A stretch of DNA of 48,335 bases from a virus (lineage: Duplodnaviria > Caudoviricetes), in IMG/VR virus record IMGVR_UViG_3300014202_000218, positions 1-48,335 of that record; one strand, given 5' to 3'. The notes below the pieces were generated by a model, which ran no database searches, was not told the DNA's origin, and saw only the letters and a list, made by a program, of their open reading frames with translations. The position numbers and the translations under genes were made by a program. Positions 1,404 through 39,842 of this stretch are shown in pieces. Position 1 is the first letter of the stretch. Every line of letters starts with the position of its first letter.

Positions 1404-1406
1404 GAA

Positions 1407-4280: not shown

Positions 4281-4284
4281 GTCG

Positions 4285-4895: not shown

Positions 4896-4896
4896 T

Positions 4897-5178: not shown

Positions 5179-5183
5179 AGAAT

Positions 5184-5447
5184 ATGACTGAGTATAACAC
5201 ACTGCTAAAAGTAGAAGTAACGGCTGAAGATATTAAAGAAGGTAAGAGAAAGAGTTGTACCAGTTGTCCTATTGCTCTTGCGTTTCGTAGGGCATTGGGG
5301 CATGACGAAGTAAAAGTCGGTGAGATCTATACCAAGATAGGTAAGAGAGAATACCGTACTCCAAAGGTAGCTTTTCAATTTATTACCTTATTCGATAAGT
5401 ACCAAAAGGTAGAACCGTTTACTTTCTATATGCAGCTAGTAGACTAA
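5184..5447 (+). CDS. Hypothetical protein, paralog of 4897-5178
   Basis: VTAEDIKEG...CTSCPIALAFRRA...FITLFD...EPFTF. Confidence 0.8.
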   Translation: MTEYNTLLKVEVTAEDIKEGKRKSCTSCPIALAFRRALGHDEVKVGEIYTKIGKREYRTPKVAFQFITLFDKYQKVEPFTFYMQLVD

Positions 5448-5450
5448 ATA

Positions 5451-5672
5451 ATGGCCATCAAATACTTCTGCGACCGCTGTGCTACTGAAGTTGATTCTAA
5501 AGGAAAGCTGCATAGGCTATCATTTAATACAGACTCTAACGACGCTCTCTACCATAGAGAACAGGTTAAGTTCGATAAAGAACTCTGTATTAGCTGCCTT
5601 CGTGCTGTATATGCTGTAGCTAATGTGTACGAGACAGAAGTTGAACTAGTTCCAAAAACTCAGGAGGTATAG
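5451..5672 (+). CDS. Small Zn-finger protein
   Basis: CDRC...LCISC. Confidence 0.7.
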   Translation: MAIKYFCDRCATEVDSKGKLHRLSFNTDSNDALYHREQVKFDKELCISCLRAVYAVANVYETEVELVPKTQEV

Positions 5673-5676
5673 TTAT

Positions 5677-5844
5677 ATGTCACTTTCACACCAAGAGTGG
5701 AAACAGATGTGGGAAGCTATTAGAGCGATTGAGGACTCAGTAAAAACATTCAATTCAATGAACATGCTTAAAGTTAGAATCATTGAGAAGGAGATTAACT
5801 TTATTAAAGATAAAATAGAGTCTGTAGTAGGGCAGATGGAATAG
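5677..5844 (+). CDS. Hypothetical 55-aa protein (not in ORF track)
   Basis: AGGAGG RBS; MSLSHQEWKQMWEAIRAIED...GQME. Confidence 0.7.
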   Translation: MSLSHQEWKQMWEAIRAIEDSVKTFNSMNMLKVRIIEKEINFIKDKIESVVGQME

Positions 5845-5853
5845 CTCCACACC

Positions 5854-5929
5854 GGACCACTAGCTCAAAGGTTAGAGCACCCGGCTCATAATCGGATGGT
5901 TCTAGGTTCAAGTCCTAGGTGGTCCACCA
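5854..5929 (+). tRNA. tRNA with CAT anticodon, most likely tRNA-Ile2 (lysidine)
   Basis: GGACCAC/GTGGTCC acceptor stem, D arm, CTCATAA loop, TTCAAGT T loop, encoded CCA; C4-G69/C5-G68 pairs as in Ile2 tRNAs. Confidence 0.92.
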
Positions 5930-5941
5930 TAAAGGTATGTT

Positions 5942-6136
5942 ATGAAATATAGAATCACAGTCCATTTGGTGCAGGGTATATCAGAGGTGTATAGTGTTGA
6001 TGATACTTTTACTATTAATACAGATGGTAGATTCACAATGGTTGAAAGTAGTGATCGAGTAGGAGAATGGAAGTCTAACACCTTTGATGGTTTCTATAAA
6101 GAAGATATTAGGAAGATTGAGATTGAGGTTATCTAA
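5942..6136 (+). CDS. Hypothetical protein
   Basis: 64-aa ORF in operon context. Confidence 0.65.
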   Translation: MKYRITVHLVQGISEVYSVDDTFTINTDGRFTMVESSDRVGEWKSNTFDGFYKEDIRKIEIEVI

Positions 6137-6139
6137 ACC

Positions 6140-6337
6140 TTGTCCGTCCGTCTAATGCGGCTGAGTCCCAATCTGAGGTATAAGAACGTAGTAGTTCAGT
6201 TGTCCTCTTGGCCTGCTGTATATGACTGGATATATTTTCGTCGTGGCCGTAATGGTCGTGATTCAATAGCACGGATGGTATGGGTAGAGGATATATATTT
6301 ACCAGCCGTTCGGCTTAGGAATACGAGGGGGGGGTAA
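6140..6337 (+). CDS. Hypothetical protein
   Basis: Fills the gap; TTG start after GAGG, start uncertain. Confidence 0.4.
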   Translation: MSVRLMRLSPNLRYKNVVVQLSSWPAVYDWIYFRRGRNGRDSIARMVWVEDIYLPAVRLRNTRGG

Positions 6338-6343
6338 AGAAGA

Positions 6344-6550
6344 ATGCCTAAAGGTATTGTTTATATAGATGAAGAGACTAGTGACGAAATGCATGGAGAA
6401 TGTCTCCTAGATAATGAGATGGTTATTACCAAAGATGAAGCATCCGAACTCTTATACGCCATGAAGAATCATTGGATTGAACGGATCGAGCCACATTACT
6501 CCATCATGAGCCAGTTGTTGAAGAAGCTACGAGAGTTAGCGTATGACTGA
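6344..6550 (+). CDS. Hypothetical protein
   Basis: 68-aa ORF with G-rich RBS. Confidence 0.65.
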   Translation: MPKGIVYIDEETSDEMHGECLLDNEMVITKDEASELLYAMKNHWIERIEPHYSIMSQLLKKLRELAYD

Positions 6551-7467
6551 TGTGGAATTCATATGAAATTTACAGTATCAAAGGTATCATAAAAGTGGAT
6601 ATCATAAAAAGTCCTAAGATTAATTATGTGTTTGATGCCACGATGTTCGATACATTCTTGGATTGTCCACAGAAGTTTAATCTAAGGCATATTCAGAATC
6701 GTGTTACACCTGAGAAGCAGAAGCCGCTCGATCGTGGTGGTATTATGCACGTAGGATTTGAGTCTTACTATAAGGCTCTAGCTGAGGGTAAGAAGTGGGA
6801 AGATGCGATTACGGCTGGACTAGTAGATATGAGGTTTGGTCTGGCTTCAGACTCTGACCTCTCTACTGATGATGGTAATCGTTGTCTTGAAGTATTTGAA
6901 GAGTCAGCTACCTTTTGGCGTGCTGATGATTTATCATGGGAGATTGTTGCTGTAGAGAAGCCGTTCTTGTACGTACTCTATGAGGATGATACATTTCGTA
7001 TTGCTATGATGGGGAAGATTGACCTTCTCCGTTCTAACAATAGATATACGAACTGTCCTATGGATCATAAGACGTATGAGAGAGACTTCCCAGTAACACG
7101 GCTGACGAATCAGTTTCAGAACTATGCTTTCGCTACGAAATCAGATTACCTATTCGTGAATCGGGTAGGATTCCAGACATCGCTGAAGTCAGAGAAGAAG
7201 CATAAGAGGATTCCACTATCCTACGACGCAGCTATTCTATCTCAGTGGAGAACGAACGTCATTCGTTGGGTAATGCACTATCATGACTGCGCCGTGTCAA
7301 ACGAGTGGCCTTTGAATACTACGTCATGTGGCAAATACAATCGTCTTTGTGAGTATCATGGTATCTGTGATACATCAGGAGAAGAGAATAAGATCTACAA
7401 ACTAGAGACACAGTTCAGGAAAGATACTCCTTGGGATGTCTCTTATGTTCTCTCGAAGAAGGGGTAG
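6550..7467 (+). CDS. PD-(D/E)XK Cas4/AddB-like exonuclease with Fe-S Cys cluster
   Basis: DCP at N-terminus, G...H, VE, GKIDL, DHKT, QF..Y, C-terminal C..YNRLCEY..IC. Confidence 0.88.
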   Translation: MWNSYEIYSIKGIIKVDIIKSPKINYVFDATMFDTFLDCPQKFNLRHIQNRVTPEKQKPLDRGGIMHVGFESYYKALAEGKKWEDAITAGLVDMRFGLASDSDLSTDDGNRCLEVFEESATFWRADDLSWEIVAVEKPFLYVLYEDDTFRIAMMGKIDLLRSNNRYTNCPMDHKTYERDFPVTRLTNQFQNYAFATKSDYLFVNRVGFQTSLKSEKKHKRIPLSYDAAILSQWRTNVIRWVMHYHDCAVSNEWPLNTTSCGKYNRLCEYHGICDTSGEENKIYKLETQFRKDTPWDVSYVLSKKG

Positions 7468-7470
7468 GGT

Positions 7471-7734
7471 ATGCACCGTAGAGATTTTCTACGATATCTA
7501 TTATCCTCAGCCGTTGCGGCTACAGTAGATGTAGAGAAACTATTATGGGTACCAGGAGAGAAGAAGATATTTGTTCCTTCTCCTAAACAAGTAGAGTTAT
7601 TTGGTATACCATATCATCAGTCTAATGCACACACTGGGACGTGGTTAGGTATAGAGCGTAGTATATATCCTTGGTTTAGGTCAAATGAAGATGCCAAAAG
7701 ATACTCTAAGAGCCTGGAACTTCCCAAACGGTAG
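7471..7734 (+). CDS. Small protein with twin-arginine-like N-terminus and a copy of a major-capsid segment
   Basis: MHRRDFL leader; LFGIPYHQSNAHTGTWLGIER matches capsid LFGVPYHNSNASTGTWLGLDR. Confidence 0.8.
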   Translation: MHRRDFLRYLLSSAVAATVDVEKLLWVPGEKKIFVPSPKQVELFGIPYHQSNAHTGTWLGIERSIYPWFRSNEDAKRYSKSLELPKR

Positions 7735-7960
7735 TAGTATTACATCTTCTCCATCTCCCGACACGCCGTATAAAGGTGTTACATTGAAGGTTGATATGAT
7801 TGATGAAATTGTATACATGGATCTGGCAGAAGTAGAGAATCGCGTTATGCTTGCCTTTGATCCTGATTCTACTGAAGAAGAGGATGAAGATGAGGACGAG
7901 GATGACCTTGATGAAGATGAAGATGATGACGAGGACGAAGAAGAGGAAGATGAGGATTAG
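7685..7960 (+). CDS. Small mosaic protein with terminase-like and PolA-like motifs and a polyacidic tail
   Basis: WNFPNGSSI...YKG.......IDE; DLAEVENRV; about 30 D/E residues at the C-terminus. Confidence 0.75.
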   Translation: MKMPKDTLRAWNFPNGSSITSSPSPDTPYKGVTLKVDMIDEIVYMDLAEVENRVMLAFDPDSTEEEDEDEDEDDLDEDEDDDEDEEEEDED

Positions 7961-7976
7961 GTAACGAGGATACACT

Positions 7977-8420
7977 ATGGCAAAATCTCTTACGCCCAGA
8001 CCGCCTAAGCATATACATAAACTTAAACGCCACAAGTACTCTAATGGCGAGGAAGTATATTTTTGTATGCTACCTCGGTGTAGGTTTAAGGTTATTACTG
8101 CTATGGCTCTTGGTGAGGAATCAATTTGCCATCGCTGTGATAAGCCTTTCATCATGAACGAGATTACAATACGGCTCTCTAAACCACATTGTAGTCTCTG
8201 TACCGTGAGAAAAGGTAATAAAGAGGATATTACACCAATACTAGACGTAGCCGTATCTACGATTCTACCAGAGCGTCGACGTTCTACTCTTATACAAGAA
8301 GGAGATCATGTCTCAGACCTCAGGTCAAGACTCTCTAGGGTTAAAGGACAAGATACTGTACTACCTGATTCTACTCTATCATCATCTGAGGGACTTCCTC
8401 CTGATGAGGATATGGTGTAG
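7977..8420 (+). CDS. Zn-finger protein
   Basis: HxH, CMLPRC, CHRC, CSLC; GAGG RBS. Confidence 0.75.
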   Translation: MAKSLTPRPPKHIHKLKRHKYSNGEEVYFCMLPRCRFKVITAMALGEESICHRCDKPFIMNEITIRLSKPHCSLCTVRKGNKEDITPILDVAVSTILPERRRSTLIQEGDHVSDLRSRLSRVKGQDTVLPDSTLSSSEGLPPDEDMV

Positions 8421-8631
8421 ACACGAGGACGTAGTTAAAACTCATAGAGACAACAAGGTTTTTACCTTCTGTACACACTGTGGATACGAGAGTCCAGGAA
8501 TAACGTTAGAGAAAAGGTTTACATATAATGCCCCGATCAGCAGAGAATATTCAACCGGGATCTCTAACAGGGAACCCATCATTTCTATTCAAGAGTTCAC
8601 CAGGCGGAGGAAAAACTCTCGCGGCTTGTAG
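8308..8631 (+). CDS. Small Zn-binding protein (start uncertain)
   Basis: WCRH...CTHCGYESPG motif bridging the 8420-8528 gap; overlaps both neighbours. Confidence 0.45.
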   Translation: MSQTSGQDSLGLKDKILYYLILLYHHLRDFLLMRIWCRHEDVVKTHRDNKVFTFCTHCGYESPGITLEKRFTYNAPISREYSTGISNREPIISIQEFTRRRKNSRGL

Positions 8632-9367
8632 TGCGGCTATATTCGGTAGGGTATATCTTGCTTACTTTGATAAAGCAGAACCTATTGAACTAGCCTGGCT
8701 GCGAGAGTATCGTCCTGAACTTTTGAAACTTATTGATTGGGACCCATATTCCTCCGTCAATGCTCATGAGTATATTAATTTCCTCCGCCGTCTAGCAGAT
8801 AAGGGCAACCCATATGCAGCCGTTATCACAGACAGCGTGACATTCATGACATCTGCAGCCGTTAACTGGTCTCTCTCATTCAGACCAGAAGCTAAAGATG
8901 CACGTGGTACTATTGCTCTGCCAGACTTTGATGATTATAAGACTGAAGCGTCTTATGTATCTCAAGCTCTGGATATCTGTAAGGGTCTAAACTGTATTAA
9001 TATCTGGACCGCTCATCCGATGCCTCGCACTAAGATTGAGGCGAACGGCTCCAAGATTGGAAAGGTTACAACTCACGAGACTCTAGTATCTTACGGCACT
9101 AAAGTAGGAGCTATGATTGCTGGTGGGTTTCAAGAGATCTACCATTTCGGTAGACAGGGCAACGATAGAATAGTCTATACTGATGCAGTAGGCGATGATT
9201 ACGCCAAGACTTCAATTAAACTACCGAAGTCATTCAATATCACGAATAGACTATTCTTCGAGGTCTGGAAAGAGTACACAGACAAAGCAAAGGAGGAAGC
9301 TGATAAGGGAAACTTCAATCCATTCAAGGACCATGTAACGGAAGCATCTGCATCACGTTGGGAATAG
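8528..9367 (+). CDS. P-loop ATPase, AAA_24/Sak4-like recombination protein
   Basis: SSPGGGKT Walker A, VITDSVT Walker B, WTAH; lies between the exonuclease and the SSB. Confidence 0.8.
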   Translation: MPRSAENIQPGSLTGNPSFLFKSSPGGGKTLAACSAAIFGRVYLAYFDKAEPIELAWLREYRPELLKLIDWDPYSSVNAHEYINFLRRLADKGNPYAAVITDSVTFMTSAAVNWSLSFRPEAKDARGTIALPDFDDYKTEASYVSQALDICKGLNCINIWTAHPMPRTKIEANGSKIGKVTTHETLVSYGTKVGAMIAGGFQEIYHFGRQGNDRIVYTDAVGDDYAKTSIKLPKSFNITNRLFFEVWKEYTDKAKEEADKGNFNPFKDHVTEASASRWE

Positions 9368-9408
9368 TTAACGTTAACCTCACTTTCTTTTAGAATAGGA
9401 CACACAAA

Positions 9409-9852
9409 ATGCCTTTCGAAGCCGTTGTTACTCCCGATGACCTCAAAAAGGGCGACCTCGTTCCGGCTGGTTGGTATCCAGCTAAGATTGAGGAATACAA
9501 GGAAGAGATTACCAAGTCTTATGGTACGGCTGGTTCTCCTAACTATAAGCCTTCTGATGGTAGCACCAATTGTATTTTCAATCTGAAGCTTATCGAGCCG
9601 TCTGCCTATAAGGGTGTCTCGCCTCGTGTTCAGTATAATGAGAAAGCTCTTGGTTATGGCAAGAGTCTTTGGGAGGCTGTTGGTATTCCCTTTGATCCTG
9701 AGAAGGGATACAAGCTCAGCACCGCAGTCTTCAATAAGATGCCTGGTATGAATGTGGATGTCTATATCAAGCGCGGTGTCTCTTCAAATCAGAAGGAATT
9801 CAATGAGGTTGTTGAGTTCCGTAAGTTCGGCACTGGCAAGTACACGGCGTAG
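9409..9852 (+). CDS. Putative single-stranded DNA-binding protein (DUF669-like)
   Basis: LVPAGWYPAKI N-terminus, NEVVEF near C-terminus; follows the ATPase; strongly biased codons. Confidence 0.7.
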   Translation: MPFEAVVTPDDLKKGDLVPAGWYPAKIEEYKEEITKSYGTAGSPNYKPSDGSTNCIFNLKLIEPSAYKGVSPRVQYNEKALGYGKSLWEAVGIPFDPEKGYKLSTAVFNKMPGMNVDVYIKRGVSSNQKEFNEVVEFRKFGTGKYTA

Positions 9853-9866
9853 TGTAGTGTAAGAGT

Positions 9867-9947
9867 TTGGGTCGAAGGTGTCTATCGAATATATTGAATA
9901 AGATAGATGGATACTAGGCGTCCAGTTTGGAGCATCCTTCGACCCAA
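9867..9947 (+). ncRNA. Intergenic three-way-junction RNA structure
   Basis: 12-bp closing stem ttgggtcgaagg/ccttcgacccaa enclosing two hairpins. Confidence 0.5.
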
Positions 9948-9965
9948 TTTAATGAGGATACTATA

Positions 9966-10220
9966 ATGTCACAAGCCGTTGACACATTTCTACCGTCTCG
10001 TACCTACAACGTTAGATTCAAGTTCAGAGGCGGCTCTAAAGTATATGAATGGCTTGGAGTACACGTTAAGCAAGACGGCTATTTCATTGTACTCACTACA
10101 CAAGATGGTACTAGTCATAAGTACCATACCTATGGTATCATAGAGAGGCATTTCGAGCTATGCCCATTGGAAGAGACTTCATCGACTCTGGTGGGAAAAG
10201 AGGCAGCAGCAGGCCAGTAG
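9966..10220 (+). CDS. Hypothetical protein
   Basis: GAGG RBS before ATG 9966, which is more likely than TTG 9927. Confidence 0.7.
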   Translation: MSQAVDTFLPSRTYNVRFKFRGGSKVYEWLGVHVKQDGYFIVLTTQDGTSHKYHTYGIIERHFELCPLEETSSTLVGKEAAAGQ

Positions 10221-10366
10221 AAAAACACGACGGTACTATTTCTTTTATACTATTACAAGACGGCTCAGTAAGAATCGTTCTTCCACCCAATCGTAAATCT
10301 GTTATCCTACAGCGTAGCCATTTAAGACGGCTAGCTCGGTGGATTATGTCTGTAACGGAGGAGTAG
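10160..10366 (+). CDS. Hypothetical protein
   Basis: 68-aa ORF in operon context. Confidence 0.55.
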   Translation: MPIGRDFIDSGGKRGSSRPVEKHDGTISFILLQDGSVRIVLPPNRKSVILQRSHLRRLARWIMSVTEE

Positions 10367-10370
10367 TGTT

Positions 10371-10655
10371 ATGTATGAAGATAGTAGAGATACAGAGCCA
10401 GGCTGCTCGAACGAGAAGCGTTTGATAACTGATAAGGAACTTGAGTATAATCATCGCATGACGAATCAGTGTAATCAGTCAAAGAGTGTGGGACCTAGCC
10501 GTATTCATATTAAAGAGTCTCTTCTTTCTCGCCAGAGAATCTTAATGGAAGAGCTTACTATCATTAATAGAACCCTTGAAGCCCTTACACCAGAAATAGA
10601 GGACCATTTTAGTCTTCTTAAGGATCTTTCTAGGCTAGGTTACAGACTCTACTAG
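10371..10655 (+). CDS. Hypothetical protein
   Basis: GGAGG RBS, 94 aa. Confidence 0.7.
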   Translation: MYEDSRDTEPGCSNEKRLITDKELEYNHRMTNQCNQSKSVGPSRIHIKESLLSRQRILMEELTIINRTLEALTPEIEDHFSLLKDLSRLGYRLY

Positions 10656-10687
10656 TCCGATTAACATCTCTTGACACGGAGTACCCA

Positions 10688-10942
10688 ATGGTAAAGAAAA
10701 CCTGGCAAGAGAGGTCTCAGGAAACGGCTGAATACCACAAAAGAAGAGTACGTGAAAAGCACCCTGAGTATCACTCGATTCGAGATACGGCTGATGAACT
10801 ACGTCGTTCTGTTGGTTCCATTACTGAGGATCTTATTCTTGATTCATGGATGAAAACGCACCCTAAAGTAGAAGAAATGCCATTTGCTTACCAAGCCTTA
10901 GAATTTATTAGGGACAAAAAGAGAGAGCTGAGATTACGATGA
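10688..10942 (+). CDS. Putative HTH DNA-binding protein
   Basis: SIRDTADELRRSVGSITEDL HTH-like pattern. Confidence 0.6.
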   Translation: MVKKTWQERSQETAEYHKRRVREKHPEYHSIRDTADELRRSVGSITEDLILDSWMKTHPKVEEMPFAYQALEFIRDKKRELRLR

Positions 10943-11484
10943 TACTTATTGGACTTGGTAATAAGGCTAGACAGGGCAAGAATACTGTAGCTGTAGAACT
11001 GTGTAAACTGTTCGCTCATCAAGGAGTATATGCAAAGCAGTATGCTTTTGCTGATGCACTTAAGGACTACTGCCGTGTAGCCTATGGCATGAAAGATAAA
11101 GACCCACGTCTACTCCAATTAGTTGGCACTGATATCTTCCGTGAGCGTATAGATTCTAATACGTGGGTCAATGTCCTCAAATCTAAACTAGAAGATGAGA
11201 ATCCCGAGGTAGGAATCGTTACGGATGTAAGATTCGAGAATGAAGTGGGCCTTATCTGGCTTTATAATGGAATCACCATCCGCGTAACTCGGATTGATGC
11301 TAATGGAGAGGTATTCTCTTCCCAAGATCGTGACCCTAACCATCCATCTGAGCTAGCTTTGGATAACCCACGGCACTGGTATGAACATATCGTAGCTTCT
11401 AATCTCTCTGACCTTCACAACGAGACGGCTTGTATGTTCGAGCAAGTTATTTATCCCCATTACCTTCGTTATAGGAGTGTTTAA
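10939..11484 (+). CDS. Deoxynucleoside monophosphate kinase (T4 gp1-like)
   Basis: IGLGNKARQGKNT, FADALK, RLLQLVGTD, VTDVRFENE, HPSE. Confidence 0.9.
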   Translation: MILIGLGNKARQGKNTVAVELCKLFAHQGVYAKQYAFADALKDYCRVAYGMKDKDPRLLQLVGTDIFRERIDSNTWVNVLKSKLEDENPEVGIVTDVRFENEVGLIWLYNGITIRVTRIDANGEVFSSQDRDPNHPSELALDNPRHWYEHIVASNLSDLHNETACMFEQVIYPHYLRYRSV

Positions 11485-12289
11485 CATGAGAGACGCTGTT
11501 CACATTGGAACTATTGAGTTTGGTAGAATGCCCCAGGTAAAGGATTATACTCCTACTGTAACAATTGAATCAGTAGAGCTTGGCCCAGATGGTAATAATG
11601 GGGGATACGCATTCTCTTTTACTCCTCGTGCTTGGCCTAATGTTCAGATTGCTACTTGGACTGGTCCTCTTCAGTATACTGTTTTTGTAGGCCGGAAGGT
11701 AGCTGGAGTATGGCATATGGCTGGAGTAATCCAGATGTGGGCCAATCGTAAATGGACTGGTGCTCCTATTAGCTCATTCTGGAAAGACTGGGCATATGAT
11801 AGATCGTGGGTGGGCGAACTGTTTAACTTAGATAATGCTATTCCAGGAGAAGAAATCCTCTTCATGCTTGTGCATGGTAATGCTAGGTATGGGATGGAGA
11901 GAGAAGCACTCTCTCTTGGTTCTAATCTGCCAGAACGTTCAAACATCATTAAGATCATTATGCCAGCCGTTCACCAGGGCAAATTCGTTTTTGGTAATGG
12001 AGTAGAGATTCCATCTAATCCTCCGTCTATCCCAGAGCCGTCTGTACCCACACTACCAGTTCCACCTACTACTCCTATTGTTGACACTCTAGGTTCTGTT
12101 TTGGCTGATATCATGAGGGTCCAGAACAACATGCTCACTGTCATTGAAGCCCAGAATGAACTCATTGGGCGTCTTGTTGAAGATGTTCAGGAGATTCGAA
12201 AGAATCAGAATAATCCATATGTTGGACAAACCTTCCTCGGAAGTATCACTATCCGAAGAGATAGTACCAGACAAGACGTCAAGTCCTAA
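11477..12289 (+). CDS. Trp-rich beta-domain protein with Pro-rich linker and coiled coil
   Basis: 270-aa ORF; WP...WTGPLQYT...GNAR...ERSNII. Confidence 0.75.
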   Translation: MFNMRDAVHIGTIEFGRMPQVKDYTPTVTIESVELGPDGNNGGYAFSFTPRAWPNVQIATWTGPLQYTVFVGRKVAGVWHMAGVIQMWANRKWTGAPISSFWKDWAYDRSWVGELFNLDNAIPGEEILFMLVHGNARYGMEREALSLGSNLPERSNIIKIIMPAVHQGKFVFGNGVEIPSNPPSIPEPSVPTLPVPPTTPIVDTLGSVLADIMRVQNNMLTVIEAQNELIGRLVEDVQEIRKNQNNPYVGQTFLGSITIRRDSTRQDVKS

Positions 12290-12521
12290 GGACTATACAC
12301 ATATTCGGTTCCCTGCGCACTCTCTACCTGGAATAGTTACTAGAATATGTGGCGTAACTGAGGGTGAATCTATTAGCTTTGAGCATTATGGAGAGAGGCA
12401 CATCAAGCCGGCAATATTAGGACAACTAGAACGGCTCCCATATCCACTATGCACAGACTGTATAGAGATATGTAGAGAAGCTTCTGATACAACTATATGC
12501 CCAACAGAGTCAACGGAATAG
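12219..12521 (+). CDS. Small Zn-binding hypothetical protein (start uncertain)
   Basis: H...ICG...LCTDC; fills the gap before the polymerase. Confidence 0.5.
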   Translation: MLDKPSSEVSLSEEIVPDKTSSPKDYTHIRFPAHSLPGIVTRICGVTEGESISFEHYGERHIKPAILGQLERLPYPLCTDCIEICREASDTTICPTESTE

Positions 12522-15040
12522 GTCCCCTAAATGCTAAACTGATGATAGTAGGGGAAGCTCCAGGTAGGGCCGAAGATGAGACTGGCACTCCATTTGTAGG
12601 CCCAAGTGGTGAGATATTAGATGATCTACTCAGCCGTTCTGGTATCTCTAGGTCGGACGTATATATCACTAATGTAGTGAAGGTACGTCCACCTAATAAT
12701 ATCTGGGAAGCTCTCCCCTCTATCGGCATATCAGTACAAGAGGAGACACAGAAGCTATGGGAATTTGAGATAAACAAGATCCAACCCAATGCCATACTAG
12801 CCGTTGGCGATAAAGCCCTTACTGCCCTAACAGCAGAATCAGGAATAACCAACTGGAGAGGCTCTATTATACAGGGGAGGGATGGAATACAGAAGGTAGT
12901 TGCTACACTACATCCTGCTGTTCTATTCCCTCACCCCGGTAAACCAGCTTGGCCCTGGGTCTGGAAACGGCTGATAGAGAATGATGTACGTAAAGCAGTT
13001 CGTCAATCAACGTTTAAAGGATTCAATCTCCCTGAACGTACTCTTACAGTAGCACATAGCTATCATCAGGTATACAAGTTCTTTCAGGAATACCGTCTCT
13101 GTAAGAAAGCAGCTAATGACATAGAGTCAATTAATTCAATACCTGTATGTACTGGATTTGCATTCAATAAACATCACGCTCTATCCATTCCTCTTCTACA
13201 TAAGGCAGGTAAGAATCGTCTATCTGATATGACAGCTCATGAGGTAGCCCAGTGCTGGAAACTCATTCAGGAGGTATTTTCCACTGGCCTAGGTATCATT
13301 GGTCATAACTACATGTATGATGAGTTCAAACAAAATCTTCTTGGATTCCATGAGATTAACTGCGTATCCGATACGAAGCTCAAGGTTCATACTATATTCC
13401 CTGAACTCCCAGATAAAGACCTAGCTACCTGTCTCTCACTCTGGACTGACGAGCCGTTCTACAAAGAGGAAGGCAAAGAGCCAAAGTTTGGCCTGTTCAA
13501 CGTAGAGAAATTCTTCAAATACAATGCAAAAGACTGTGCTGCTACATTTGAACTTGACGAGGAAATGGAGTGCTCTCTTCAGGCTCTTGAGGATAAGCTC
13601 CATATCCCTCTGCGAAAATTCTATTACGACTATGTCATGCGGAAGCACGGATTCTACCTCCGCATGGCTAACAACGGCTTCCGTGTTGATCACAGACAAA
13701 AAGATATTCTTAAAGGTGCGTATGAATACCTTAGAGAAGTTGCCCATGAACATCTCGTCTCCCTCATAGGCACAGAGATTAATGTAAAGTCCGCTCCTCA
13801 GATGAAGAAGCTTCTCTATGAGGATATGGGCTTTACTATGCCTAAGAAGTGGACACCGAACGGCCAGATAGATAAAGATGGTGCTACGTCTGAAGATCAA
13901 ATCATCAATCTCATTAACGTACATTGCCGCTCTGGCCCTAACGTTAATCTGAAACGCTCTATTCTCGAAGGTATTCTACAAGAAAGGAGAATCAGGGATC
14001 AAATCTCTCGTGCTCTAGATTTTGTCCCTGACTATGATGGCCGCTGCAAAACATCGGTTAACATTGTCGGAACGGAGACTGCAAGAACTAGCACAGGAGT
14101 TCTCAAGAAACCCGTCAGACCTAAAAAGATTGGTCTTGGATTCCATACCATACCTAAACACGGACGACTTGCTAGAGATATCCGAAGCATGTTTATCCCA
14201 GATGAGGGCTTTGTTTTCATTCAAGGTGACCTCTCGCAAGCGGAAGCGCGGATAGTAGCCGTTCTGGCAGAGGATTGGGAGTTACTAAAAGCCTTTGATA
14301 TCATAGACATCCACCGCAGGACGGCTGCCATATTCTTTGGGTATACTAAGAATCTTGTTCTTACACCGGATTTCATTAAAGGTGTAGATGACCTAGAGAA
14401 AGATGGAGCAGAGCGTTATACTGGTAAGACATTCCGCCATGCTGGTAACTATGATATGGGCAAGCATACGGCTATGGTTAACTACAATACCAATGCCCAG
14501 AAGTATGAGATCAACACGGTCATATCCGAGTATCGCGCTGGAGAACACATTAGGAAATTCCACGAGGCATCTCCTAATATTAGAGCCGTCTTCCACCGAG
14601 ATATTCGTTTAGCTCTAGATTCGTCTCGTATTCTCATCAACCCATACGGACGCCCTAGAGAGTTCAATGGTAAGTATGAAGATGATCTATACAAAGAAGG
14701 ATTCGCACAGATACCACAGTCAACAGTAGCAGATACTACCCAGTCAGCCGGTATCTCAGCATGGGATGAATGGGGTCATGATTCACGTATTGCAATGTTC
14801 ATGTCAGAGAATCACGATGCTCTTGTGGCACAGGTACCGCTGAACGGCTGGAGAGATTATGCTAAATCACTCAAGCGACACATGGAAAGGGATATTGATT
14901 TTTCCACTTATTGTACTCTTCGCAGAAATTATACACTTCGTATCCCCGTTGATATTGAAGTATCTATTAACCCTTCTACGGGCCGAGTAACAAACTACGG
15001 CGAACTCACGAAGTGGACTAAGATAAAGGAGGCTGCGTGA
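12497..15040 (+). CDS. polA: Family A DNA polymerase with N-terminal family-4 uracil-DNA glycosylase domain and 3'-5' exonuclease
   Basis: GEAPG..E...G.PFVG, NVVK.RPP.N, HPA (UDG); DIE, GHNYMYD, YNAKD (exo); TARTS, DLSQAEAR, RYTGKTFRHAGNY, NHDAL (pol motifs). Confidence 0.95.
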   Translation: MPNRVNGIGPLNAKLMIVGEAPGRAEDETGTPFVGPSGEILDDLLSRSGISRSDVYITNVVKVRPPNNIWEALPSIGISVQEETQKLWEFEINKIQPNAILAVGDKALTALTAESGITNWRGSIIQGRDGIQKVVATLHPAVLFPHPGKPAWPWVWKRLIENDVRKAVRQSTFKGFNLPERTLTVAHSYHQVYKFFQEYRLCKKAANDIESINSIPVCTGFAFNKHHALSIPLLHKAGKNRLSDMTAHEVAQCWKLIQEVFSTGLGIIGHNYMYDEFKQNLLGFHEINCVSDTKLKVHTIFPELPDKDLATCLSLWTDEPFYKEEGKEPKFGLFNVEKFFKYNAKDCAATFELDEEMECSLQALEDKLHIPLRKFYYDYVMRKHGFYLRMANNGFRVDHRQKDILKGAYEYLREVAHEHLVSLIGTEINVKSAPQMKKLLYEDMGFTMPKKWTPNGQIDKDGATSEDQIINLINVHCRSGPNVNLKRSILEGILQERRIRDQISRALDFVPDYDGRCKTSVNIVGTETARTSTGVLKKPVRPKKIGLGFHTIPKHGRLARDIRSMFIPDEGFVFIQGDLSQAEARIVAVLAEDWELLKAFDIIDIHRRTAAIFFGYTKNLVLTPDFIKGVDDLEKDGAERYTGKTFRHAGNYDMGKHTAMVNYNTNAQKYEINTVISEYRAGEHIRKFHEASPNIRAVFHRDIRLALDSSRILINPYGRPREFNGKYEDDLYKEGFAQIPQSTVADTTQSAGISAWDEWGHDSRIAMFMSENHDALVAQVPLNGWRDYAKSLKRHMERDIDFSTYCTLRRNYTLRIPVDIEVSINPSTGRVTNYGELTKWTKIKEAA

Positions 15041-15267
15041 ACATTTATATCCTAGCTAGAGTACATCCAGAAAGCTCTGTAGATGTTATCGGTTACTCAC
15101 CAATTAAATGGTTATATGCAGATCCTATCCAAGCTATGTCAGGCTTAAAGGTTGTTAAAAGGCTATATCCTAATAATTACTGGAAAGTCTTGATGTATGA
15201 AGCGAAATTTCACGGTGTTCTAGAGGAAGTTATAGAGCCACGCACAGCAGAAGGGAGCTTAGAATAA
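15037..15267 (+). CDS. Hypothetical protein
   Basis: AGGAGG RBS, GTGA coupling. Confidence 0.7.
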   Translation: MNIYILARVHPESSVDVIGYSPIKWLYADPIQAMSGLKVVKRLYPNNYWKVLMYEAKFHGVLEEVIEPRTAEGSLE

Positions 15268-15572
15268 TGCCATTCCCAAAAGGTGGATCAGTATTTAGAC
15301 GTAACATTTGTGTAGTAGCAGGCTCAGTACAGGGAGGGATGGAGTTTGTTGTAAACCAGCATGGAGCGGATTGGATTAGGCATAAAGATCATTTTGCTGG
15401 TAGAACGTCTGACTCTATAAGGTATATCATTATAACAGATGAAGATAGGGAGAGGGTAGTGGGCTTGGAATTTGATGCACTCCTAGTATCCCCTTGCTAT
15501 ACAGACCTTGTGAAGTTTTGTAGTACTAGGGTCAGACTTAGAAGTGATAAAGAGGATCTGATAGGAGAGTAG
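15267..15572 (+). CDS. Small protein resembling a truncated terminase ATPase subdomain
   Basis: ICVVAGS.Q...DEDRERVVGLEFDALLV pattern, without Walker A or the DE pair. Confidence 0.65.
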   Translation: MPFPKGGSVFRRNICVVAGSVQGGMEFVVNQHGADWIRHKDHFAGRTSDSIRYIIITDEDRERVVGLEFDALLVSPCYTDLVKFCSTRVRLRSDKEDLIGE

Positions 15573-15573
15573 A

Positions 15574-15852
15574 ATGGGAATCCAGCGTATTATAACGTGC
15601 GATGTGTGTGGTATAGCCGTTGAGCCAGGAATAGATAATAGACTGGAACGTTTCGTCTCTATCTCTCCCGTAGGCCATGTACCATTCACAGCAAGGGTGC
15701 TTATTCAGATATCCTCTGACTATACACTCTGTGCTGAACATAAACGGTCCGTGCTAGAGGAACTATTCAAGCCATACGATGGATTCGATGATGATCTCTC
15801 CAGCCGTCTTACAGGCAGAGCGGCTCGGGCTAGACCACTAGTTCGTCGTTAG
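15574..15852 (+). CDS. Small Zn-finger protein
   Basis: CDVC...LCAEH; similar layout to 5451-5672. Confidence 0.7.
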   Translation: MGIQRIITCDVCGIAVEPGIDNRLERFVSISPVGHVPFTARVLIQISSDYTLCAEHKRSVLEELFKPYDGFDDDLSSRLTGRAARARPLVRR

Positions 15853-15898
15853 ACATTACTACTATAAGTTCTCCTACTACGTTCAGTACGACGCTACT

Positions 15899-16348
15899 AT
15901 GCTACAGCCAAACTATGTAGAGAGTATTAAATCTAAGCTACTACTTAACAAGGTAGTAGTTAATGACTGCTGGTTGTGGAAAGGTAAATATGGGAGACAG
16001 TGGATAGGAATAGATTATAAAACATACTTAGTTCATAGAGTATCTGCCTCCATATTCCTCGGTATGGATTTAGATTCACATGAATTAGTATGTCACAAGT
16101 TAATATGCCCAAACCCTGGTTGTTATAACCCTGATCATATCTATATTGGGGATACTTCAACCAATACTATAGATGTGGTTAAATCTGGTAAGTACAGGAA
16201 TGGGAATACTAACAAAACAGTATGTAAATGCGGCAAACCATATGACTCTTATACGATAAGAGCAAATGGCAAGATATGGAGAATATGTAAATCATGTAAG
16301 AATGAATCAAATAGAAAGTTGAGGCGTAAAAATAATGCTTCAACCTAA
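15899..16348 (+). CDS. HNH homing endonuclease
   Basis: CWLWKG, VHRVS, VCH..CPNPGCYNPDH, N..D, C-terminal CKCG...CKSC. Confidence 0.9.
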   Translation: MLQPNYVESIKSKLLLNKVVVNDCWLWKGKYGRQWIGIDYKTYLVHRVSASIFLGMDLDSHELVCHKLICPNPGCYNPDHIYIGDTSTNTIDVVKSGKYRNGNTNKTVCKCGKPYDSYTIRANGKIWRICKSCKNESNRKLRRKNNAST

Positions 16349-17588
16349 TTATGTAGATGATGTACTCGAGGAATGTAACGATGTGGAGACACCTCGGGAT
16401 TGGATATACTGGAGTCTAATATGTACGATAGCTGCCGCAGCGGGTAGTGACTATTTTCTTGTTGCCTTTAATGGGAAGGTAACGTACAAACCAAATATCT
16501 ACACTATACTTATGGGAGAATCAGGATTAGGTAAGCAGTTTCCTGTATCTCTAGCTAAGAATCTTGTAGACCGTTCCGATACAACTCGTGTTATTTATGG
16601 ACGTTCATCCATTCAGGCTATAGTCAATGACATCTCCAAAACCAAACAACGAGAGCGTGGAAGTACTATTATGGATAGTCGTTGTTTCATTGTCAATGGT
16701 GAATTGTCTACTGCCATTATACAAGATCCACAAGCACTCACCATTCTTACTGACATCTACGATCCTCACACTAAGTGGGATAACACCCTTAAAGGAGATG
16801 GGTCAGGGGAAAAAGAGACTCTTACTGATCTTGCTACTACTGCTTTATTTGGCACAAGTCCATCTCACTTCTATGATTCTATCCCTCAAGTGAATATTGA
16901 AGGTGGATACATAGGCCGTAACCTCGTAATACGAGCAGAGAAACGCTACAAAGACCTTGATATGTTCTCAGATTCAGATGATGCTACTGACTTCCCATAT
17001 GCTAAATACGTAGAACACTTAGTAAAGATAGGCCAATCTGGTGGAAGGATGATACCAAATGCGGATGCTAAAGAGGCTATTAACTCCTTCCGCCGTAAAT
17101 GGAGACAAGAGCAGAGGGAAGATACAGTAGGATTCCTGAATCGAGTACCAGATCATATCATTAAAGTAGCCATGTGTCTCTGTCTTGCAGACTATGACTC
17201 GTATCGTACTCTCGTTATAAACCAGTCACATATTGAAGAAGCTATAGAAAAGGTTCTCCCATTAGCCCATACTACGAGGACAGTAACAGCAGGCTTAGGT
17301 GAAGATCCTATAGCTAAGCATACACGAGCCGTTATTGATTTTCTCATCAAGGCTCCAGAGCATAGACTCACTAGACGCCAGCTACTATCTAAGGGTTATG
17401 GAAACTATGATGCACCTGTTCTAGATCGTGTCTTAGCTACCCTTAATGAGGTAGGCTGGATTGAGACTATGCGTAAGATTGAATCGGGTTCTAACACTGA
17501 AGTAGAAATATCTCTACGAGGAGAGCCATTGAAGCAATACAATGATTACTTAGAGTCTCGTAAGAAGAAGGGAACGGCTAATGAGTAA
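16335..17588 (+). CDS. DUF3987-like AAA+ replicative helicase with C-terminal winged helix
   Basis: PNIYTILMGESGLGK, ELS, LFGTSP, GGYIGRNL, R....IKVAM. Confidence 0.8.
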   Translation: MLQPNYVDDVLEECNDVETPRDWIYWSLICTIAAAAGSDYFLVAFNGKVTYKPNIYTILMGESGLGKQFPVSLAKNLVDRSDTTRVIYGRSSIQAIVNDISKTKQRERGSTIMDSRCFIVNGELSTAIIQDPQALTILTDIYDPHTKWDNTLKGDGSGEKETLTDLATTALFGTSPSHFYDSIPQVNIEGGYIGRNLVIRAEKRYKDLDMFSDSDDATDFPYAKYVEHLVKIGQSGGRMIPNADAKEAINSFRRKWRQEQREDTVGFLNRVPDHIIKVAMCLCLADYDSYRTLVINQSHIEEAIEKVLPLAHTTRTVTAGLGEDPIAKHTRAVIDFLIKAPEHRLTRRQLLSKGYGNYDAPVLDRVLATLNEVGWIETMRKIESGSNTEVEISLRGEPLKQYNDYLESRKKKGTANE

Positions 17589-17826
17589 CGCTAAACTCAC
17601 CGGCCGTATTAAGAAGCCTAACAGCCGTGGATTCGGATTCATTGAGACGGCTGAAGGAATAGACTTCTTCTTCCACTATTCATCCTTCGATGGAGACTGG
17701 AAGAAGATGCTATCTAGTTACCTCGCTAATAATAACCTCGTGGTAGAGTTTGAGAATGACCCTACTACGATAGATGGACCTAAAGCTAAAAACGTTAAGA
17801 TTATAGGAACGGAGTCAGACCGATGA
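17581..17826 (+). CDS. Cold-shock domain protein
   Basis: RGFGFI (RNP1), FFFHYS (RNP2), GPKAKNV. Confidence 0.88.
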   Translation: MSNAKLTGRIKKPNSRGFGFIETAEGIDFFFHYSSFDGDWKKMLSSYLANNNLVVEFENDPTTIDGPKAKNVKIIGTESDR

Positions 17827-18023
17827 TGAAGGGTAAAGTTAAGAATCTTAAGCCGGAACAGAACTTCGGGTTTATTCGTGGAGAGGATGGTCAAGAGTAT
17901 TTCTTCCATCGCTCTGCTGTTGTTGGGGATTATTATGACTCTATGGAGAAAGGATCTCCTGTAGAGTTTGAGGGTGAAGATACACCTAAAGGGCTTAGAG
18001 CAGAGCAGGTTATTCTACTCTAG
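17823..18023 (+). CDS. Cold-shock domain protein
   Basis: KGKVK, FGFI, YFFHRS, VEF, PKGLRAEQV. Confidence 0.92.
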   Translation: MMKGKVKNLKPEQNFGFIRGEDGQEYFFHRSAVVGDYYDSMEKGSPVEFEGEDTPKGLRAEQVILL

Positions 18024-32976: not shown

Positions 32977-34296
32977 TTAGTAACCGCTCGGAACAGTCAG
33001 ACCATCAATATAAGACAGAGCCGGAGGCATCTTATTGAAGATCTGGAATGAAACAGTCAGATACTGGAGCTGCGAGGTCTGAACACCACCACTAGGACCA
33101 CGCACCTCAAATATCTTCCTTCCACCCACTTCATAGAATCCAGCCGCCTTCATTTCAGCGCGACCAAATGTATCCATGGGAAGGAAATCAATACGGGTTT
33201 TATCCCACATGAACTGGTCATCAATAGAAGCACCAGCCATTTGCATTCCATCACCAAAGTACATATCAAGATTCTCAGCCTTAGCCGTCTTCTGAATGAC
33301 AGAAACGAGCTGACCAAGCTCTTCATATGCCTGCTTCTGGCAAGGATGCATAAAAGCCTTAAGACTCTTACCCATCTTATTCTTACCCAAACGATCACCA
33401 ATCTTGTTCATGGCAAGACGGGCGAAAGGAAGAGCAAGAGCACCAGAAGCATTCACTCGATTAGCACGAATCTGCGGAATGGTAGCACGATCCAAACCAA
33501 GCCAAGTGCCAGTCGAGGCATTTGAATTGTGATATGGAACACCAAACAGACTCGTCGGTGATGCACCAGCAAGACCACTAACAAGAATCTTATCACCAGC
33601 CGTAATACCAGAGACGGCTGCGAACTTAACTACCTTGTTAGGCAGATCAACATACGTGATCTCAACTTCTCCAGCCGCAGTACGATTAGTAGCCAACGTG
33701 CTATCATACACATTGACAGGCTGACCTTCCTGCATAAGCTTAACACCGAAACCATCCGTAGAGCAGGTAACGGTATCAACACCAGAAGAAGTAGAAACGG
33801 AAGTAACAGTTCCAATAACACCATTACCAGCCGTCATGCACAGTGCATTCAGATGACGACGGAACTCGGGCATTTCACCGGCAATGAGTTCCTGATAGGC
33901 ATTAACAACAGCCTTAGCATCCGAATCAGTAGACCACTCAACAAGCTTGGACCACTGAATAGCATACTTGAAATGGCAAACAGTAACGACAGCCTTATCA
34001 TACGTGCTGCCACCACCGAGTCCCATATCACCATTATCAGGATTGAAATGCCCAAACTTACCACCAGGCTTGAGCTTCAAAGGGACTCGCATAGCACGAT
34101 TGGAAACCTTTTCTGCACTAGCAGACTTCCCAACCTGGCTATAGAAAGTATCCTCAAGTTCAAACATCTGAGGAACCTTCTTGTGAATCTTCTCAGCTTC
34201 AGTAGCAACAACCTGGGACTCTGTCATGAGCTCGAACACACCAAAAGGCGTAGCTTCGAGCATACCATGCAGCGACTTAAAGAAACGAGAAATCAT
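32977..34296 (-). CDS. Major capsid protein
   Basis: 439 aa after scaffold and portal; high-expression codon bias; HK97-like layout. Confidence 0.85.
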   Translation of the reverse strand: MISRFFKSLHGMLEATPFGVFELMTESQVVATEAEKIHKKVPQMFELEDTFYSQVGKSASAEKVSNRAMRVPLKLKPGGKFGHFNPDNGDMGLGGGSTYDKAVVTVCHFKYAIQWSKLVEWSTDSDAKAVVNAYQELIAGEMPEFRRHLNALCMTAGNGVIGTVTSVSTSSGVDTVTCSTDGFGVKLMQEGQPVNVYDSTLATNRTAAGEVEITYVDLPNKVVKFAAVSGITAGDKILVSGLAGASPTSLFGVPYHNSNASTGTWLGLDRATIPQIRANRVNASGALALPFARLAMNKIGDRLGKNKMGKSLKAFMHPCQKQAYEELGQLVSVIQKTAKAENLDMYFGDGMQMAGASIDDQFMWDKTRIDFLPMDTFGRAEMKAAGFYEVGGRKIFEVRGPSGGVQTSQLQYLTVSFQIFNKMPPALSYIDGLTVPSGY

Positions 34297-37901: not shown

Positions 37902-38230
37902 TACTGTTTCCTTGCGTTAAGAGATTCTTCGAACTTTCGTTCAGCTTCCGTAAGCTCAGGATCTTTAGATTTCTTACTAGCTATACTAGCTGCTTCTCTC
38001 CTCAAACTCGACATCGTAGTAATGCGTCGAAGTGGGAGATAATTCTCATCATCTACTGCACTCTGCTGGTCAACGGCTAGTATTCCAGAGCGAATAAGAA
38101 GAAGCCTCTCATAATAATCTCGCTTCTCCCGCTCAATATCTAGCCATTCTCTCAGTAGGAGGCAAGACTTACATTCCCTACCTTCTTCCCCTACCAATTC
38201 TACGGTGACCGGCGACTGTATATATCTCAT
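37901..38230 (-). CDS. Hypothetical protein (start uncertain)
   Basis: CKSC plus coiled coil; stop coupled to the portal start. Confidence 0.6.
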   Translation of the reverse strand: MRYIQSPVTVELVGEEGRECKSCLLLREWLDIEREKRDYYERLLLIRSGILAVDQQSAVDDENYLPLRRITTMSSLRREAASIASKKSKDPELTEAERKFEESLNARKQ

Positions 38231-39842
38231 CGTCGCTTTCACCGGACTCACTAAGACGTTCAAGCTCACGGTAATAAGCCGTCTGAGATTGAGCAGTACG
38301 TATCGCATTTAGCTTCTCTATTTTCTCCATCTGTTCCATGCGAGCTTTAGACTCATCATAGAACTTATGGGCAGCTCTCACTATAGCACGGAGAGCATCA
38401 TAAGGATCATCACCAGGAAACTCTGCAACATCTTCAGGATTATGCTCATCGGGTATACACATCGGTATAACATCAATGAGCTCCTTTGCCTCTCTACCCT
38501 CCAGCGAACGAAAGAATATTTGCAAGCGCGGGATATTCTTCTCTTCCTCCACAGTAGCAAAGATCTGAAGATATTCGTTATAAGACTCTTCGCCCTTATT
38601 CCTCAGAATCCAACCAGCTAGAGTCTGGTCATATCTCATATTATGAGTAGCTACTACTGGCTTCTGCTGCCAGCGTAGAAACTCATGAATCATCTTCTTA
38701 CCACCGATACGATCTTTCTCTGCCAGCCGTATTTGATATTTTCCCTCGAACGCGTTGTATATCTGCTCTCGAATCGTTAACGGCTCACCTCTATGCTGAT
38801 TAGCAGAGTGACAAACAACAACATCTTCTAGTACTTCATCACCAGTAAATGTTAGAATGTCCTTACTCCACACCTCAATAAGAGTCTTAACCCATGCAGC
38901 CGTCCTGTAGATATACAATCTACCATCCGGAGATACAGCGCCCCAGATAGCAAATGTCATTGCTGCCCATCCCCAATCTATCGCTAGTATTCTGGGCCAC
39001 CATGATGGAATCTCAAATGGAGCAATAACATGTACTGCATTCTCTGGTTCATCAGCCAGTCGCATGACTCGGAACTCAGAGAATACTTGACCCTCATATG
39101 AGTTCCAGTCACCATAAAGCTTAGCTTTCTTTTCTACTTCCGGTAGACCTTCGAGCCGTACCAGGTATCCTGGGTCATTCTTAGTAAGATACGGATTATC
39201 CTTACCTAGGAATGGAACATATATTCTTTTCTGTCCAGTCTTCTTATCCTGTATAATCCTCTGACCTAGCGGGAACGGCTCAACGAATCTTTCTTTAAAG
39301 AATGCATGGCCAACATTGCCTGGATTCGTGAAAGCTCTAACAATTGCTGGGAGGTCAGGTGATGAACTCCTACAACGAGATATTGACAAGTAGAGATATT
39401 GGAAACCTGTAAAGTGTGTTGACTCATCCCAATCAATGTAGTTATACTCAGCGGAGTCGTATTTACGGACGTCTTGTTCTCTCTCCGCATGGCCATTTTG
39501 AATCCTAGCTCCAGAAGGAAACTTCCATACCTTCTTAGTATCGTTGTAGACGGCTCCCATAGGAGCATACCACTCATGCTGGCGAGGAACTATTTCTTTC
39601 TCTAGATCCGTAGCTAGCCGTCTCATAACCAATCCCTTGAACTTAGGATGTTCAGTGAATTGGCGAGCCGGAGGTATCATTATACCAAGATCAGTCTTAC
39701 CACCACCTGCTGCTCCGCCACCTAGAGCTTCGAATACAGTATCAGGAAGACGTAGAACATCATTCTGACGCTGAGTAGGAATCCACTCCTTCAATATTAC
39801 TGGAGTAGCATTTCCAACCTCAGTTACATTGAGTTCTGACAT
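38178..39842 (-). CDS. terL: Terminase large subunit
   Basis: PT.RQ, GGAAGGGKT, YIDWDE, TNPG, AIDWG, DDPYDALR. Confidence 0.95.
   Translation of the reverse strand: MSELNVTEVGNATPVILKEWIPTQRQNDVLRLPDTVFEALGGGAAGGGKTDLGIMIPPARQFTEHPKFKGLVMRRLATDLEKEIVPRQHEWYAPMGAVYNDTKKVWKFPSGARIQNGHAEREQDVRKYDSAEYNYIDWDESTHFTGFQYLYLSISRCRSSSPDLPAIVRAFTNPGNVGHAFFKERFVEPFPLGQRIIQDKKTGQKRIYVPFLGKDNPYLTKNDPGYLVRLEGLPEVEKKAKLYGDWNSYEGQVFSEFRVMRLADEPENAVHVIAPFEIPSWWPRILAIDWGWAAMTFAIWGAVSPDGRLYIYRTAAWVKTLIEVWSKDILTFTGDEVLEDVVVCHSANQHRGEPLTIREQIYNAFEGKYQIRLAEKDRIGGKKMIHEFLRWQQKPVVATHNMRYDQTLAGWILRNKGEESYNEYLQIFATVEEEKNIPRLQIFFRSLEGREAKELIDVIPMCIPDEHNPEDVAEFPGDDPYDALRAIVRAAHKFYDESKARMEQMEKIEKLNAIRTAQSQTAYYRELERLSESGESDDEIYTVAGHRRIGRGRR

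Follow-up and report, generated by a model that had tools for sequence, protein, structure and literature searches.

ORF 7471, an 87-aa mosaic mini-gene at positions 7471..7734 (+) of the 48,335-nucleotide caudovirus record IMGVR_UViG_3300014202_000218 (the whole record is the window analysed here, genome G000), is one of a widespread family of phage genes that place exchangeable, in-frame pieces of virion proteins behind a constant twin-arginine leader. Its own sequence reads as a mosaic of three parts: a leader resembling twin-arginine translocation (Tat) signals, a stretch resembling the Q-motif of the large terminase, and a loop of the major capsid protein. We assign a probability of about 0.4 to the reading that the product is a Tat-tethered or exported bait for motif-reading immune sensors. 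A first-pass annotation of the window had grouped small ORFs (7471, 7685 and 15267, with 8308 as a weaker case) as decoys of the phage's own core proteins; all four are present in the record at the positions given, and the organising unit is the leader-plus-cargo family, not this set.

Organization of ORF 7471

The constant family leader occupies residues 1–34 (7471..7572, +), and comprises an RRxFL motif, a short apolar stretch and, after these, the motif DxEKLLWxPG..IF. The second part, residues 26–47 (7546..7611, +), resembles the N-terminal Q-motif of the clade large terminase. The third part (7597..7686, +) is a copy of major capsid residues 250–279 with 63% identity over 30 aa, and the capsid segment regarded as its source lies at 33460-33549 (-), within the major capsid gene (32977..34296). 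An all-versus-all blastp of the G000 genes matched ORF 7471 to residues 250–290 of its own major capsid protein with 49 bits (E 1e-11), and the real score was reached in 0/1000 shuffles when the ORF was compared with ten own core proteins. The first-pass identification of ORF 7471 as a capsid excerpt is thereby confirmed, and it is the sole one of the four flagged ORFs that significantly matches any of the genome's own core proteins. The copied loop is among the top 5% most conserved capsid windows and lies before the first A-domain helix, according to the secondary structure read from a capsid model (mean pLDDT 81) that resembles solved HK97-fold capsids.

The twin-arginine leader and the terminase-like piece had been missed in the first-pass annotation. 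On a position-specific scoring matrix derived from 21 clade terminase N-termini, and made only after the motif was spotted in ORF 7471, the Q-motif-like stretch scores 18.6 bits (0/2000 shuffles), and the next small gene scores -4.4. The stretch is closer to the clade consensus than to the terminase of G000 itself.

A phage family with a constant leader and exchangeable cargo

Seventeen close relatives of ORF 7471 were found. RR and DxEKLLW are invariant in their alignment; behind the leader, 14 sequences have the capsid loop and 3 have different capsid pieces. A profile of the 18 sequences (ORF 7471 and relatives) retrieved 1,658 clusters at E 0.001, among which ordinary Tat proteins may be included; the best 150 of these clusters are all 56–233 aa long. 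The mid-leader motif alone, used as a DNA pattern on IMG/VR, yielded 61 viral loci, 60 of them with an in-frame ORF and all with an upstream RR; those 60 loci hold 61 ORFs, 53–54 of them distinct. A single-protein capsid query over viral contigs returned nothing, whereas the alignment-based query did retrieve relatives.

The sequence behind each leader was isolated as cargo and compared with 25 profiles built from fetched genomes. Matches were obtained for 98 cargos of a 157-protein set, comprising 92 to capsid (five types), 4 to terminase and 2 to portal, with 0/157 among reversed controls. No cargo of this set matched the polymerase, helicase, primase, exonuclease, Sak4 or SSB profiles, which derive from the clade of G000 only. 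In the set collected by the leader motif alone, 12/53 cargos matched, all to capsid, and reversed controls gave 0. PHROGs independently returned major head matches for 7/53 leader-only cargos, and terminase matches at the Q-motif/Walker A region (phrog_979) for 4/27 picked family members at E 8e-4 to 0.1; the members with a terminase match extend from the Q-motif into Walker A. A Walker A-like motif and the motif IDWG are each present in 7/157 members (reversed, 0 and 1, respectively). The loop is kept in about 56/157 members, a count inflated by the retrieval of this set with a loop-containing profile.

A repertoire of core-protein fragments, as had been proposed from the window alone, is real as a gene family across phages, where fragment ORFs recur, cluster in variable slots and shuffle, with cargos that include capsid, terminase, portal and adaptor pieces. 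Within G000, where the capsid match alone is significant, it contracts to one solid gene and two leads.

Some loci carry two leader genes with cargos that are often unlike (L004:2446-3038, with loop and N-arm; L035, L039, L052, L054 and L089). A leaderless 113-aa ORF between portal and terminase (G001:38557-38895 (-) and L016:19557-19895) holds two capsid pieces, which match positions 361–395 (E 7.5e-6) and 58–73 of the clade capsid profile.

Self-match, selection and exchange of cargo

Of the 21 whole leader-bearing records collected, 13 had been selected for size and completeness among 30 of the 61 leader-only loci, and 8 were additional records. When 22 cargos were compared with the long ORFs of their own genomes, capsid was the best match in 13, of which 9 were significant (at most 1/200 shuffles); the best match was an adaptor in 1 (significant), a portal in 2 (neither significant) and some other gene in 6. 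Within the 13 leader-only records, own capsid was best for 8 and significant for 5. Phages of differing capsid type bear cargo pieces of their own type.

The loop copies carry signature residues of their own. Isoleucine is found at capsid position 253 in 38/48 copies versus 19/118 capsids, and at position 268 in 26/48 copies versus 0/118 capsids. Because these residues are specific to the family, the loop copies are an old lineage rather than fresh ones, and "self" is to be taken as the phage's own capsid type and not as a recent copy. Across five pairs of cargo and own capsid (144 codons), pS is 0.74, near saturation, and pN is 0.29, a value lowered by the choice of segments for their protein match. 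Neutral decay would not leave 16/23 residues at such a synonymous distance, and the cargo is conserved at the protein level.

Exchange is visible in DNA. Loci L234 and L251 share a near-identical ribosome-binding site and leader, followed by an abrupt switch to loop in one and N-arm in the other, and L235 and L238 have the leader and first cargo in common and differ in the second. These DNA pairs, together with locus positions, are the only output used from a crude regular-expression classifier of cargos that mislabels some rows. A tree of 92 leaders requires 34 cargo changes, compared to 31–41 with shuffled labels (minimum 7); although this fits frequent swapping, the roughly 32 leader columns resolve too little for the tree to be counted as evidence.

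Genomic slots

In the clade of G000, genes of the 7471 type are optional and sit in variable slots of the replication arm, and accessory conflict genes are typically found in such positions. Two (G015 and G025) of 22 relatives selected solely on their capsid have an RR-led capsid piece; 13 of the 22 are at least 90% complete. The PD-(D/E)XK exonuclease gene (6550..7467, +, in G000) directly adjoins a conserved Cys/His zinc-finger-like clade gene (7977..8420, +) in 10/17 genomes; in G000 these two genes border an accessory slot on its left and right, respectively, and the gap between them is exactly ORFs 7471 and 7685. Likewise, polymerase directly adjoins primase in 10/18 genomes, and the gap in G000 holds ORF 15267. 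The same gap in G015 contains a homologue of ORF 15267, directly followed by a leader-capsid gene. No recognised core gene is present at 21/60 leader loci.

Leaderless small ORFs are also found in those same variable slots (G015:3216-3464 (-) and G014:23715-23903 (+)). By eye the first resembles the strand-helix of the capsid A-domain and the second the capsid N-arm; a family search gave no support for either likeness. In L253:6750-9261, as well as in G005, G009 and G011, an RR-leader gene with a capsid N-arm is located between the halves of an apparently split terminase.

Relationship of the leader to Tat signals

Residues 2–8 of ORF 7471 (HRRDFLR) fit the motif S/T/N-R-R-x-F-L-K at the N-terminus. 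The family consensus is N-R-R-D-F-L-K, and RR is present in 152/156 and 54/54 members. The leader shares with the Tat signals of PF10518 and TIGR01409 an SRRxFLK-type motif, its register and its N-terminal position, and the leader of one member (P0261) passes the PF10518 cut-off. With regard to an AxA-type cleavage site, a loose AxA-like pattern, too permissive to speak for or against such a site, precedes the acidic motif in ORF 7471 and in 72/153 and 52/54 members. In the structure of the MdoD signal bound in TatBC, helix 2–20 is clamped by TatC and TatB, and the RR register of the family leader is that of the MdoD signal (PMC13323110). The family departs from Tat signals in its short apolar stretch and mostly sub-threshold scores, in the addition of the fixed motif DxE[KR]LLWxPG, and in its passengers, which are pieces of virion proteins and no folded domain. 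The leader likely docks at TatBC or at the membrane. Tat can co-export partners that lack a signal of their own (PMC4273604), as in PaoABC and HybOC, and leader proteins could in principle carry a bound partner likewise. Substrates with exposed hydrophobic regions can also become stuck at a late stage of Tat transport (PMC13673990).

Unrelated to the leader family are two phage ORFs in which RR is followed by a cysteine in a Tat-lipoprotein-like arrangement (G020:10587-11063 and G021:2824-3282).

Proposed function

In the bait function that we favour, the ORF 7471 product would be made early in the clade of G000, and its leader would dock it at the membrane or on the Tat translocase of the host. 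Through its copied motifs it would bind a partner whose usual ligand is capsid or terminase. The first choice for this partner is a host sensor, because capsid, terminase, portal and adaptor are known triggers of bacterial immunity and because Lit and CapRel recognise short motifs in capsid (10.64898/2026.01.04.697583). By occupying such motif-reading sensors, the bait would keep them from the true capsid and terminase. More speculatively, its tethering or hitchhiker export would separate the sensor from its substrate, and the leader would in this way offset the risk that unbound bait sets a sensor off.

Parallels exist for single elements of this scheme. The anti-DSR2 protein DSAD1 is a small phage protein that rivals a virion protein for an immune sensor, as the proposed bait would; its target is single and fixed, no library of cargos is involved, and the accessible text does not describe it as a trigger copy or as leader-bearing (PMC11087589). 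The triggers of Avs2/3, Avs7/8/10, CapRel and Lit/Gol are the proteins copied by the leader family (10.64898/2026.01.04.697583, PMC9712102, 10.64898/2026.08.25.746987). These are host sensors, and the Avs proteins among them bind whole folds, so that short cargos would fit motif-reading sensors only. No self-fragment antagonist of capsid or terminase sensors was found in the accessible parts of EVADES (10.1101/2025.06.06.658234), 10.64898/2026.01.04.697583 or PMC13728456; the main text of EVADES lacks the word "capsid", and its protein tables could include a member. Full-text literature searches, at the level of listings and abstract openings and of passages in 10.64898/2026.06.04.730250 and 10.64898/2026.09.13.751334, turned up no paper on phage genes that join a Tat leader to a capsid fragment. 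Within the literature so covered, the design of a leader with virion fragments has no counterpart.

Several observations weigh against the bait function. Avs7/8/10 envelop the folded capsid A-domain (10.64898/2026.01.04.697583), a target that a 30-residue loop or N-arm cannot reproduce, and a free bait could trigger a sensor rather than block it. ORF 7471 scores 14.8 bits on the Pfam family TAT_signal (PF10518), below the cut-off of 22.7, and has no match to TIGR01409, whose cut-off is passed by just 2/18 leaders examined. The apolar stretch after RR comprises 11 residues in ORF 7471, short of the 13 uncharged residues that TatFind takes as the minimum of an h-region; it reaches at least 13 in 14/153 and 26/54 family members. 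Because the stretch is short and the curated cut-offs are mostly missed, export is not assured, and we regard full export of the leader proteins as uncertain. With respect to cargo, 59/157 cargos and 41/53 leader-only cargos were assigned no source, and the N-arm, the second commonest cargo, has a conservation of 0.61 versus 0.71 on average. The match to self is imperfect as well: the cargo of ORF 7471 scores 51 bits on the G001 capsid and 49 on its own, and a 162-aa coat-like cargo of G012 is nearer to another phage's coat than to its own capsid. The over-counted loop and the lowered pN, both mentioned above, weigh on this side too. Lastly, 17/60 leader loci have a packaging or head gene on the same strand at a distance of no more than 3 kb, so early expression is no family-wide rule; the earlier proposal that the decoys precede the late proteins fits the clade of G000 and does not extend to the family.

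If the bait function is correct, a leader of export type that displays swappable copies of conserved motifs would give phages a counter-measure of a new kind, in a setting where bacterial immunity monitors most core phage proteins and these are hard for phages to alter; the alternative considered first below would make such genes a new kind of phage–phage weapon. The cargos name epitopes under selection, namely the capsid N-arm, the post-insertion loop, and the terminase Q-motif and Walker A. If bait and export both hold, the cargo list would be a map of the epitopes read by unknown bacterial sensors, and the cargos, from genes of fewer than 100 codons, could themselves serve as bait for finding sensors of that kind.

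Alternative explanations

A weapon against competing phages is unlikely. Its tethered fragments would capture or poison subunits of the capsid, portal or terminase of co-infecting phages of the same type, or the assembly partners of these subunits. The cargo comes solely from assembly proteins and agrees better with the capsid type than with the phage's own exact sequence, as the family-specific isoleucine at position 268 and the G012 cargo illustrate. Satellites, moreover, inhibit TerL by binding: the small Gpi proteins of PLE act on a competing phage's terminase, although they are satellite-encoded and are not described, in the accessible text, as terminase-derived or leader-bearing (PMC11417361). 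A phage that looks lytic would, however, poison its own assembly in this way, and many cargos consist of scattered motifs of catalytic type (Walker A, IDWG) and not of whole interfaces.

A broader version of the bait function is improbable as a whole. It would comprise a recombining library of self-epitopes behind a Tat leader, with a bait that binds a host pattern-recognition protein in the cytoplasm and parks it at TatBC, or takes it across the membrane as a hitchhiker, so that the cell is disarmed before the late proteins appear, and with the leaderless ORFs 7685 and 15267 as an extension of the set.

We consider it similarly improbable that the genes assist the phage's own morphogenesis, with membrane-anchored capsid and terminase handles that would seed head assembly and packaging or set their timing, or would sequester a host chaperone or protease that handles capsid subunits. 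The 17/60 loci near packaging and head genes, and the lineage with the gene inside a split terminase, are in line with such a role. Against it, the gene is missing in 20/22 capsid-picked relatives, and cargo jumps between unrelated protein parts behind near-identical leaders, which suits no single structural role.

A coordinated set within the genome, in which ORFs 7471, 7685, 15267 and 8308 mimic capsid, terminase, polymerase and portal, is quite improbable. It gains from the position of ORF 7685 in the slot of ORF 7471 and its terminase-like features, from the terminase-like predicted fold of ORF 15267, whose homologue adjoins the leader-capsid gene of G015, and from the leaderless two-piece capsid mosaic of G001. 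It loses from the chance-level matches of ORFs 7685, 15267 and 8308 to own core proteins, the failure to find a polymerase piece, the membership of ORF 8308 in a separate zinc-ribbon family, and the lack of relatives of ORF 7685.

Least probable is that the leader alone is active, by jamming TatBC or disturbing the membrane, with the virion pieces as passengers captured by recombination: the leader is much more conserved than the cargo, many cargos are unassignable, and the apolar stretch is short for export in a pathway whose exposed-hydrophobic substrates can stall late (PMC13673990), but the pieces are in frame, stem from virion proteins, are conserved at the protein level (pS versus pN) and include a loop widely kept with its signature residues.

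ORFs 7685, 15267 and 8308

ORF 7685 (7685..7960, +) is a leaderless 91-aa ORF that shares the slot of ORF 7471, and has a terminase-ATPase-like N-terminal half and an acidic tail; we treat it as a lead only. By eye it resembles the F.NGS.I...G...DE part of a terminase ATPase ahead of the acidic tail. All named feature look-alikes of residues 1–62 in Atlas are terminase-ATPase families, at 0.87, below the 0.9 bar. It tops 50 small ORFs on a terminase profile with E 0.025, the region having been chosen post hoc, and gives E 0.016–0.13 on post hoc terminase profiles. The match to the terminase of G000 itself reached 22 bits, with 26/1000 shuffles. No terminase match was obtained in Pfam, PHROGs or a phage tblastn; the Pfam terminase families missed even the real terminase of G000, and are uninformative here. 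Homologue searches found no relatives.

ORF 15267 (15267..15572, +) is also leaderless (101 aa) and also a lead only, possibly a terminase-ATPase core stripped of Walker A and of the acids of Walker B. By eye it resembles the core seen in ORF 7685, with other residues in place of the Walker B acids. Its low-confidence Atlas model (pLDDT 0.51) aligns to terminase ATPase clusters with TM scores of 0.55–0.62, below the naming bar, and a single-sequence model has a pLDDT of 34. No match was found to ten own core proteins, polymerase included (660/1000 shuffles), and sequence, profile and PHROGs searches against TerL gave nothing significant. Homologues were found only in G015 (E 1e-5). A whole-length mixed terminase profile selected neither ORF 7685 nor ORF 15267, and PDB sequence searches for both returned chance-level matches only.

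The first-pass annotation had called these two ORFs excerpts of terminase or polymerase. Terminase-like leads are retained at the level of features and fold, and no polymerase mimic was found: none of the four ORFs matches polymerase beyond chance, and the clade polymerase profile found no match among the small ORFs of 24 relatives. Terminase descent has about even odds for each of the two ORFs, and a shared role has lower odds.

ORF 8308 (8308..8631, +) is a small zinc-ribbon ORF of a separate family. Its proposed likeness to the CxxC..SPG motif of the portal was rejected: the match reached 22 bits with 47/1000 shuffles, the motif is present in 1/24 clade portals, and it recurs in unrelated small ORFs, with stand-alone C.H...CxxC..SPG ORFs like ORF 8308 also in G008 and L037. 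Because 31 small ORFs were examined, both 47/1000 here and 26/1000 for ORF 7685 are at chance level.

Genome setting

G000 is a whole phage record of 48.3 kb with a CheckV completeness of 100%. The + strand arm (756-18023) encodes a helicase, the exonuclease, a Sak4-like protein, a dNMP kinase, a uracil-DNA glycosylase–PolA fusion and a primase, together with many small ORFs. The - strand arm holds the large terminase (38178..39842; phrog_979, E 2e-39; Q-motif region near 39753-39788), genes that resemble portal and scaffold, and the HK97-fold major capsid gene introduced above (NF033394, E 7e-9; E 5e-10 for the fold match with solved capsids). Portal, scaffold and adaptor are names assigned in part by gene position. 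Domain and PHROGs scans of the G000 proteins gave no integrase match, and the phage looks lytic. No cultured phage with a 7471-type gene was found, and one family member (L253) sits in an Acidobacteria bin, a weak hint of the host. Promoter and terminator predictions did not differ in number from those in shuffled sequence.

Other features of the window were recorded in passing. In the early arm, phrog_19191 paralogs stand in tandem at 4897-5447, and two cold-shock-domain genes in tandem close the arm at 17581-18023. The uracil-DNA glycosylase domain is fused to a family A DNA polymerase at 12497-15040. An HNH endonuclease (15899-16348) and the downstream primase (16335-17588) have identical first seven residues, as if HNH insertion had duplicated the primase start. 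A stand-alone 84-aa ORF at 10688-10942 resembles an internal helical segment of proteins of more than 400 aa in relatives, and also stands alone in G001, G015 and G030. The region 44400-48100 (about 3.7 kb) lacks a convincing gene and contains several short repeats and palindromes, and an inverted repeat with short repeated units is present at both ends of G000 (161-221 and 48139-48199, 82% over 61 bases). The portal-like protein (35616-37901, -) carries a double CxxC zinc-ribbon insert at residues ~219–268, whose middle is highly variable in length across 24 relatives.

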